Made by a program: the position numbers and the translations under genes
Shown: positions 13,517 to 13,911 of the stretch, in pieces
Layout of the letters: each line of letters opens with the position of its first letter
Position numbering within the stretch: position 1 is the first letter of the stretch
Sequence record: PP925830.1
DNA length: 40,665 nt
Direction: 5' to 3' (one strand)
From: Escherichia phage CharmingMan
Notes under the pieces: model-generated
The model's input: the letters and a program-made list of their open reading frames with translations, nothing else
What the model was told of the DNA's origin: nothing
Database searches by the model: none

Positions 13517-13911
13517 ATGAAAATGCAAAATTTACTTAACTCTATAAATAAGCCAGTCGCTTATCCTCGTGAATTATTTGTTGATGAGAAAGGTGAGTAT
13601 ACGTCTGGGAAAATCATGACTTGCCAGATGGGTGGGGACTCCATGCAGCCAACCATCCAGCCATGCGAACTGATCGCTTTCGCTGACTGTGGCGGAAAGA
13701 TCTCAGAGGCGGGTATTTATGTTTTTACCGTGATGTTTTCGGGCGACCATGCGTATTCGTTAAGCGTGTTGAGCCAATGCCTGACGGCGCTCTGGTGATA
13801 ATTTCTGACAATCATCATTACGAGACTTTTACGCTTGACGCCGACGAGCAGAGCGATATGCAGGTGCATGGCCGGGTTATTGCCTCAATGACAATGAGGC
13901 GCTTCGTATGA
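13517..13911 (+). pseudogene. UmuD-like / cI-C-terminal-domain-like S24 peptidase gene interrupted by a frameshift
   Basis: Frame 1 (13517-13798) encodes ...GGDSMQPTIQPCELIAFADCGGKISEAGIYVFTV then nonsense; a second frame (open 13687-13911) continues VFVKRVEPMPDGALVIISDNHHYETFTLDADEQSDMQVHGRVIASM, the canonical S24 C-terminal half including the catalytic Lys. The junction lies near the T4 run at 13736-13739. Confidence 0.55.

Follow-up and report, generated by a model that had tools for sequence, protein, structure and literature searches.

A frameshifted copy of a stand-alone S24-domain gene in Escherichia phage CharmingMan

The stretch between positions 13523 and 13911 of Escherichia phage CharmingMan is probably an early gene, conserved and dispensable, that was inactivated not long ago by a real mutation, the loss of one C. 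When intact, the gene encodes an S24 domain on its own, whose relatives are the C-terminal domains of BTP1-type cI repressors. The frameshift is unremarkable, being either a recent null mutation or an error of the consensus, and the family is a known one, already catalogued as phrog_6201 and, at NCBI, as "S24 family peptidase." All positions are those of the window, that is, the whole stretch of 40,665 nucleotides that was analyzed (record PP925830.1). The gene, hereafter the S24-only gene, comprises the following features.

13523..13911, plus strand: S24-only gene, disrupted (129 aa once repaired), delimited by alignment to intact homologues and by matches of the repaired product to PF00717 and phrog_6201.
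13523..13798, plus strand: open frame as it stands, 91 aa from the ATG at 13523 or 93 aa from 13517.
13728..13729, plus strand: frameshift site, where the CCC of intact relatives is shortened to CC (one nucleotide deleted within ACC-CGT, codons 69-70); the extra base is present in all nine relatives (9/9) that cover the site at ≥90% identity.
13732..13911, plus strand: portion of the gene 3' of the break, read in the -1 frame as DVFGRPCVFVKRVEP...RRFV*, which has Lys81 and the ISDN motif.

The lesion and its origin

Frame 1, read from 13517, runs MKMQN...GGDSMQPTIQ...GIYVFTVMFSGDH...LW* to a TGA stop at 13796-13798; its N-terminal stretch is MKMQNLLNSINKPVAYPRELFVDEKGEYTSGKIMTCQMGGDSMQPTIQ, and the Ser half of the domain (GDSM) lies in this frame. 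Frame 3 (...YRDVFGRPCVFVKRVEPMPDGALVIISDNHHYETFTL...RRFV*) ends at the stop codon at 13909-13911; its C-terminal stretch is YRDVFGRPCVFVKRVEPMPDGALVIISDNHHYETFTLDADEQSDMQVHGRVIASMTMRRFV, and the Lys half (VKR) thus lies in the -1 frame. The original prediction, that two overlapping frames jointly encode a full S24 domain split by one frameshift, was borne out: the joined product scores on both PF00717 and phrog_6201. Nor is the S24 match of the second frame spurious, as the repaired product is 98% identical (E of 3e-81) to its closest intact homologue, P0001 of C. amalonaticus. The start codon is likely the ATG at 13523 (MQN...), as in the database homologues; it lies 7 nt 3' of the GGA in an AAGGA Shine-Dalgarno sequence, and the upstream ATG at 13517 is unconserved, with GTG, ATA, or ACA at that place in relatives. 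In the 91-aa open product, residues 1-69 are authentic, including Ser40 of GDSM, and are followed by 22 out-of-frame residues. Ser40 and Lys81 fall on different frames, so the Ser-Lys pair is not found on one polypeptide. The truncated product, which keeps Ser40 and lacks Lys81 together with the last four predicted beta-strands, would be nonfunctional.

The window reads A-CC-G at 13727-13730 (TTTTTA-CC-GTGATG), versus A-CCC-G in relatives. DNA alignment with Aeromonas phage AsXd-1, Escherichia phage LMessi, and two Citrobacter amalonaticus prophage contigs places a single gap here (TTTTTACCCGTGATG in the relatives, TTTTTACCGTGATG in the window). The break had been assigned to a T4 run at 13736-13739; the actual lesion is a C missing from the CCC run, 7 nt upstream of the T4. 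Comparison with intact homologues, which had been suggested as a check, showed relatives with a single frame and a window one C short, and one uninterrupted S24-only frame was present in 93/93 related loci drawn from IMG/VR and GTDB genomes. Searches of viral_contigs, metagenome_contigs, and these related loci did not turn up the broken allele, TATGTTTTTACCGTGATGTTTTC, and an exact-match query with the 93-aa truncated product against public assemblies returned no record. When 1,927 ORFs of relatives, the complete LMessi and Fraca genomes included, were searched against the window by tblastn, covering part of it, one consistent frame switch emerged, at 13728-13729 (31 queries), and a second site was flagged by just one query. 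The closest phage isolates cover 30 to 53% of the window's first 25 kb. In the repaired 3' half, dN was 0.000 to 0.022 at a dS of 0.08 to 0.20 against all close relatives except L007; since dN is far below dS in the repaired frame, the break is either very recent or an isolated consensus error. Other alleles, broken independently, occur in public assemblies, namely a T5-to-T4 change (P0089), a 1-nt deletion next to AAAG (P0091), and an internal deletion (P0090), and these look like ordinary background for a dispensable gene.

The lone frame break and the undecayed 3' half leave, as the two live options, the recent pseudogene and the sequencing indel that had been offered from the outset. A sequencing or assembly error, in which the gene of the true phage is intact, with CCC, and one base went missing in the consensus, is a possibility that we hold with some doubt. 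It fits a difference of a single base in a homopolymer, a 3' half with no decay at all, and a broken allele that is unique among everything searched, and two of the other broken public alleles (P0089 and P0091) likewise lie at or near short homopolymers. However, a run of just 3 nt is short for typical homopolymer errors, and no other consistent frame break was seen where the relatives' ORFs cover the window, including the terminase, portal, tape-measure, and tail-tip genes; and the 13.8 kb to which relatives align at ≥90% identity showed no second indel lacking compensation.

Slippage had also been proposed. Programmed slippage, ribosomal (-1) or transcriptional, at the T5 run would restore the frame and allow regulated low-level expression. 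The peptidyl-tRNA-Phe, moved one base back on GUU-UUU-A, would re-pair perfectly, and the resulting ...VFYRDVFG... would differ by one residue from the intact ...VFTRDVFG.... This mechanism is nonetheless highly improbable, because the relatives, which share the T5 run, keep CCC and a single frame, none of the 93 showing a two-frame layout, because the zero-frame codons are GUU-UUU-ACC and G-UUU-UUA is therefore out of phase for an X_XXY_YYZ heptamer, because the A-site codon ACC is unable to re-pair after a -1 slip, and because T5 is too short for slippage by RNA polymerase. The structured element, moreover, is upstream of the gene. On this reading of the sequence a slippage-regulated gene is highly unlikely, and a real, recent loss of one C is the account that we prefer.

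The intact protein and its relatives

The repaired product matched Pfam PF00717 (Peptidase_S24) at 34.5 bits (cut-off, 23.3) and phrog_6201 at 1.8e-31, with residues 16-130 of the 131-aa query aligned to profile positions 13-120 of 121; it is a full-length member of this family of Enterobacteriaceae prophage proteins, of which the window copy is a frameshifted one. No helix-turn-helix (HTH) model matched the repaired product in the domain profile search, and its homologues, which form 91 clusters, are only 128-129 aa long, in agreement with the original view that the protein has no HTH. Given the lack of a DNA-binding domain, the PHROG label "repressor" is probably wrong. All of 44 homologues (52 to 98% identity) have Ser40 (GDSM) and Arg82, 43 of them have Lys81, and ISDN is a conserved motif; no Ala-Gly or Cys-Gly self-cleavage site is conserved in their N-terminal 35 residues. 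The family dN/dS is 0.08 to 0.21, and the intact gene is under purifying selection. Conservation of the Ser and Lys could in part reflect a constraint of the fold rather than catalysis. The AlphaFold model has the S24 beta-fold and is moderately confident (pLDDT of 74.9, low in the N-terminal 30 residues). A search of PDB sequences with the family profile gave no match at an E of ≤1, and PADLOC defence models matched neither the S24-only protein nor its neighbours. A literature search for a characterized stand-alone S24 phage protein or a functional study of the phrog_6201 family found none.

Several features of the family were observed along the way. Cys34, Cys56, and Cys77 are near-invariant, with a fourth cysteine at residue 48 in most members; these residues are specific to the S24-only family, being absent from the BTP1 cI C-terminal domain, and a metal or redox site is possible. 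The gene is otherwise restricted to Enterobacteriaceae, and copies 81% and 57% identical occur in Chryseobacterium sp. and Chitinophaga MAG records (L086, L092, and L094), for which contamination or mislabelling seems likely. A Haliscomenobacter match reaches 27% identity only.

An exhaustive profile search returned a tight clade of proteins of about 125-130 aa and, beyond it, from an E of about 1e-16, mostly HTH+S24 repressors of 200-250 aa. In hhalign comparisons, the family profile matched the BTP1 cI C-terminal domain with a probability of 97.5% (E of 7.8e-12), E. coli UmuD with 0.26%, and the window's own cI, which belongs to a different S24 subfamily, with 0.7%. The closest sequence relatives outside the family are the BTP1/ST104-type cI/C2 repressors of P22-like and lambdoid phages (some records carry COG2932), with 34-35% identity to the C-terminal domain of BTP1-type cI over residues 4-123. 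Both proteins have GDSM, VKR, ISDN, and the S24 fold, but the S24-only protein is without HTH, linker, and Ala-Gly site, has three conserved cysteines of its own, and is encoded in a repressed early-left operon rather than at the cI position. The BLASTP alignment to BTP1 cI starts about 12 residues past the Ser-Ala-Gly site of that repressor. Together, the hhalign, profile search, and BLASTP results identify the protein as a repressor-type C-terminal domain without HTH, linker, or substrate strand of its own, and not as a UmuD homologue. A recent duplication of the C-terminal domain of the phage's own cI was considered and rejected, as BLASTP and hhalign show nothing shared beyond GDSM.

The gene had been called UmuD-like, a label that does not survive these comparisons: besides the hhalign result, neither NCBIfam PRK10276 (pol V subunit) nor the UmuD-like phrog_811 was matched by the S24-only protein, although the window's own cI matches both. 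The accompanying statement that no umuC/dinB partner lies nearby was confirmed, with no Y-family polymerase in the larger window ORFs tested and none among the precomputed Pfam matches of the Citrobacter prophage neighbourhood; the neighbours of the gene are ORFs of 101 and 35 aa and not a umuC-type polymerase. P1 HumD is a stand-alone UmuD'-sized protein with no partner polymerase gene. The intact protein might accordingly be thought a UmuD'-type, HumD-like accessory factor that joins host UmuC for SOS mutagenesis, as it too matches UmuD' in size, consists of an S24 domain alone, and has no polymerase gene as partner. We regard this role as quite unlikely, because the protein has no detectable sequence relationship to UmuD, fails to match the two models that recognize the phage's own cI, and has cI repressors as its nearest two-domain relatives.

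Operon context and leader RNA

The surroundings of the S24-only gene, in order along the window, are as follows.

12274..12951, plus strand: cI-like repressor, 225 aa, with an S24 C-terminal domain (PF00717, 82.9 bits) and a Gln-Ala-Gly site.
12973..13000, plus strand: strong intrinsic terminator directly after cI (stem at 12973-12993, then a T run), with an 8-bp stem that includes 5 GC pairs.
13079..13120, plus strand: predicted PL/OL-like control region with operators TACCTGCAGGTA (13079-13090) and TACCTATAGGTA (13105-13116).
13152..13457, plus strand: gene 1, the first gene of the PL-type operon, 101 aa.
13481..13514, plus strand: conserved leader RNA, predicted fold with a minimum free energy (MFE) of -16.9 kcal/mol and a z score of -4.15.
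13908..14015, plus strand: orf35, a 35-aa microprotein gene (MTFIIDKSAYRTACLYAASGYEVIARLYLKKAYGR) whose ATG overlaps the S24-only stop (ATGA).

A promoter-like TTGATT-18-TATATT (13091-13120) is bracketed by two TACC-N4-GGTA 12-mers. The window has five such copies, three between cI and a divergent cro-like gene (12210-12261) and two at 13079-13116, which would define OR-like and OL/PL-like regions, respectively. Because the same 12-mer operators occur at OR and around this promoter, the S24-only gene appears to be the second cistron of a cI-repressed operon of the PL type, which continues to the integrase gene (17461-18774). The terminator after cI separates the cI transcript from this operon. 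With its promoter flanked by operators of the type found at OR, the S24-only protein should be made only after infection or derepression.

The gene order cI(S24), gene 1, S24-only, orf35, orf74, orf121 is conserved. Homologues of gene 1 occur at the same position in 58/93 loci, orf35 occurs at offset 0 in 92/93, and orf121 in 90/93. Variation in orf35 is concentrated at third codon positions, and it is thus probably a real microprotein. The gene 1 product matched nothing in Pfam, PHROG, or PADLOC, and no PDB structure resembled its predicted fold (pLDDT of 71) at better than an E of 0.6. Every upstream repressor examined has an S24 domain, and by sequence the repressors form 12 clusters or more. 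The clades of the S24-only protein covary only weakly with cI type (r = 0.33), which speaks against a specific partnership with the cI of this phage. Fraca, a related phage, lacks the S24-only gene, and the sole match there is its own cI; the gene is therefore accessory and dispensable.

Further observations concern other genes of these phages. In about a third of relatives, a 143-aa HTH protein (PF07022 and PF01381; annotated "CII-like") is encoded between cI and the S24-only gene, as in LMessi (L002:2230-2661) and about 30 other loci. It has ...NEQCGEF... directly past the HTH, in which Cys-Gly is a candidate cleavage site, and such an HTH-only gene beside an S24-only gene resembles a split repressor, as judged from sequence. 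Within the early-left operon of the window, positions 16048-16791 encode an ORF6N-domain protein (PF10543, 3.8e-12), a domain common in phage antirepressor-like proteins. Just after the integrase gene, positions 18888-19343 encode a protein with a DinI-like domain (PF06183, 5e-22), and the phage thus also carries a likely modulator of RecA filaments.

In the MFE fold of the leader, CCUU at 13483-13486 pairs with the AAGG of the Shine-Dalgarno sequence at 13511-13514, and this helix encloses a 7-bp hairpin, GGGUGAG/CUCACCC (13490-13496/13503-13509). The Shine-Dalgarno helix is pairable in 97.8% of cells across 56 relatives, with no covariation. An alternative hairpin, CACC (13481-13484) with GGUG (13491-13494), shows compensatory changes (AU, 43; GC, 6; GU, 6), and its covariation score was reached by 0/500 shuffles. 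In relatives with the CACC:GGUG fold, a CUCA:UGAG mini-hairpin again covers the Shine-Dalgarno sequence. Given these conserved folds over the ribosome binding site, translation of the S24-only gene looks structurally restrained. The 7-bp GGGTGAG/CTCACCC hairpin was rejected as a covariation-supported element, as it performed no better than shuffles, RNAalifold on the gappy leader alignment gave no consensus structure, and Rfam had no match in 12000-15000 at an E of ≤1. The GACAGA loop was considered as a putative boxB/nut element. The lambda cIII mRNA has alternative structures, to which the Shine-Dalgarno-masking leader described here may be loosely likened.

Proposed function and significance

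A speculative reading, to which we give a low probability, is that the intact protein is an enzyme that acts in trans on S24 repressors, whether the phage's own cI, those of co-resident prophages, or LexA, and thereby makes the switch to the lytic cycle irreversible or rewires the SOS response, with its synthesis gated by the leader and coupled to that of orf35. In this model, the S24-only protein would be made only after infection or derepression of the PL-type promoter, and the leader structure would restrain its translation by masking the Shine-Dalgarno sequence. Since the protein keeps an active site but brings no substrate strand, it would most likely act in trans on the system formed by RecA* and S24 repressors. 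It could do so as a protease for S24-type repressors or LexA or, alternatively, as a mimic of the repressor C-terminal domain that alters RecA*-dependent repressor cleavage or oligomerization. The original suggestion of a RecA-activated, self-cleaving SOS sensor is improbable in that form, since the family lacks an Ala-Gly or Cys-Gly site. Dimerization with the C-terminal domain of cI, the other role suggested, would pair the protein with a domain of a different S24 subfamily if the partner were the window's own cI. In CharmingMan itself, the function would be absent, as the 91-aa product lacks Lys81, and translation would end some 110 nt short of the ATGA at which orf35 starts, which would abolish translational coupling to orf35 as well.

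Known systems offer partial parallels. Kim and Little (Cell 73:1165) reportedly observed, in 1993, intermolecular cleavage by C-terminal fragments of LexA and lambda cI, engineered proteins that were studied in vitro. By analogy, the S24-only protein, an S24 domain without its own cleavage site, could act on other repressors; unlike those engineered fragments, it is naturally encoded. The Hex protein of phage 434 is a small accessory protein encoded adjacent to cI that blocks RecA-stimulated autocleavage of the repressor, and it is cotranscribed with cI from PRM and made in the lysogen (PMC3564112). In the sections consulted, Hex is not described as an S24 protein (PMC3564112), and the S24-only gene differs further in sitting behind a terminator and an operator-controlled promoter.

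In sum, the frameshift itself carries little weight, and annotation as a pseudogene or a check of the reads is warranted. The S24-only family is of more interest, comprising S24 domains that bear the Ser and Lys but have neither a DNA-binding part nor a self-cleavage site, encoded at a fixed place in a repressed early operon of many Enterobacteriaceae prophages, beside a putatively self-cleaving cI. Should cleavage or mimicry in trans prove true, the family would bring a further level of control to the classic RecA/cI induction switch. It might then provide an irreversible lytic switch or a rewired SOS response, and CharmingMan would serve as a natural knock-out for comparison.
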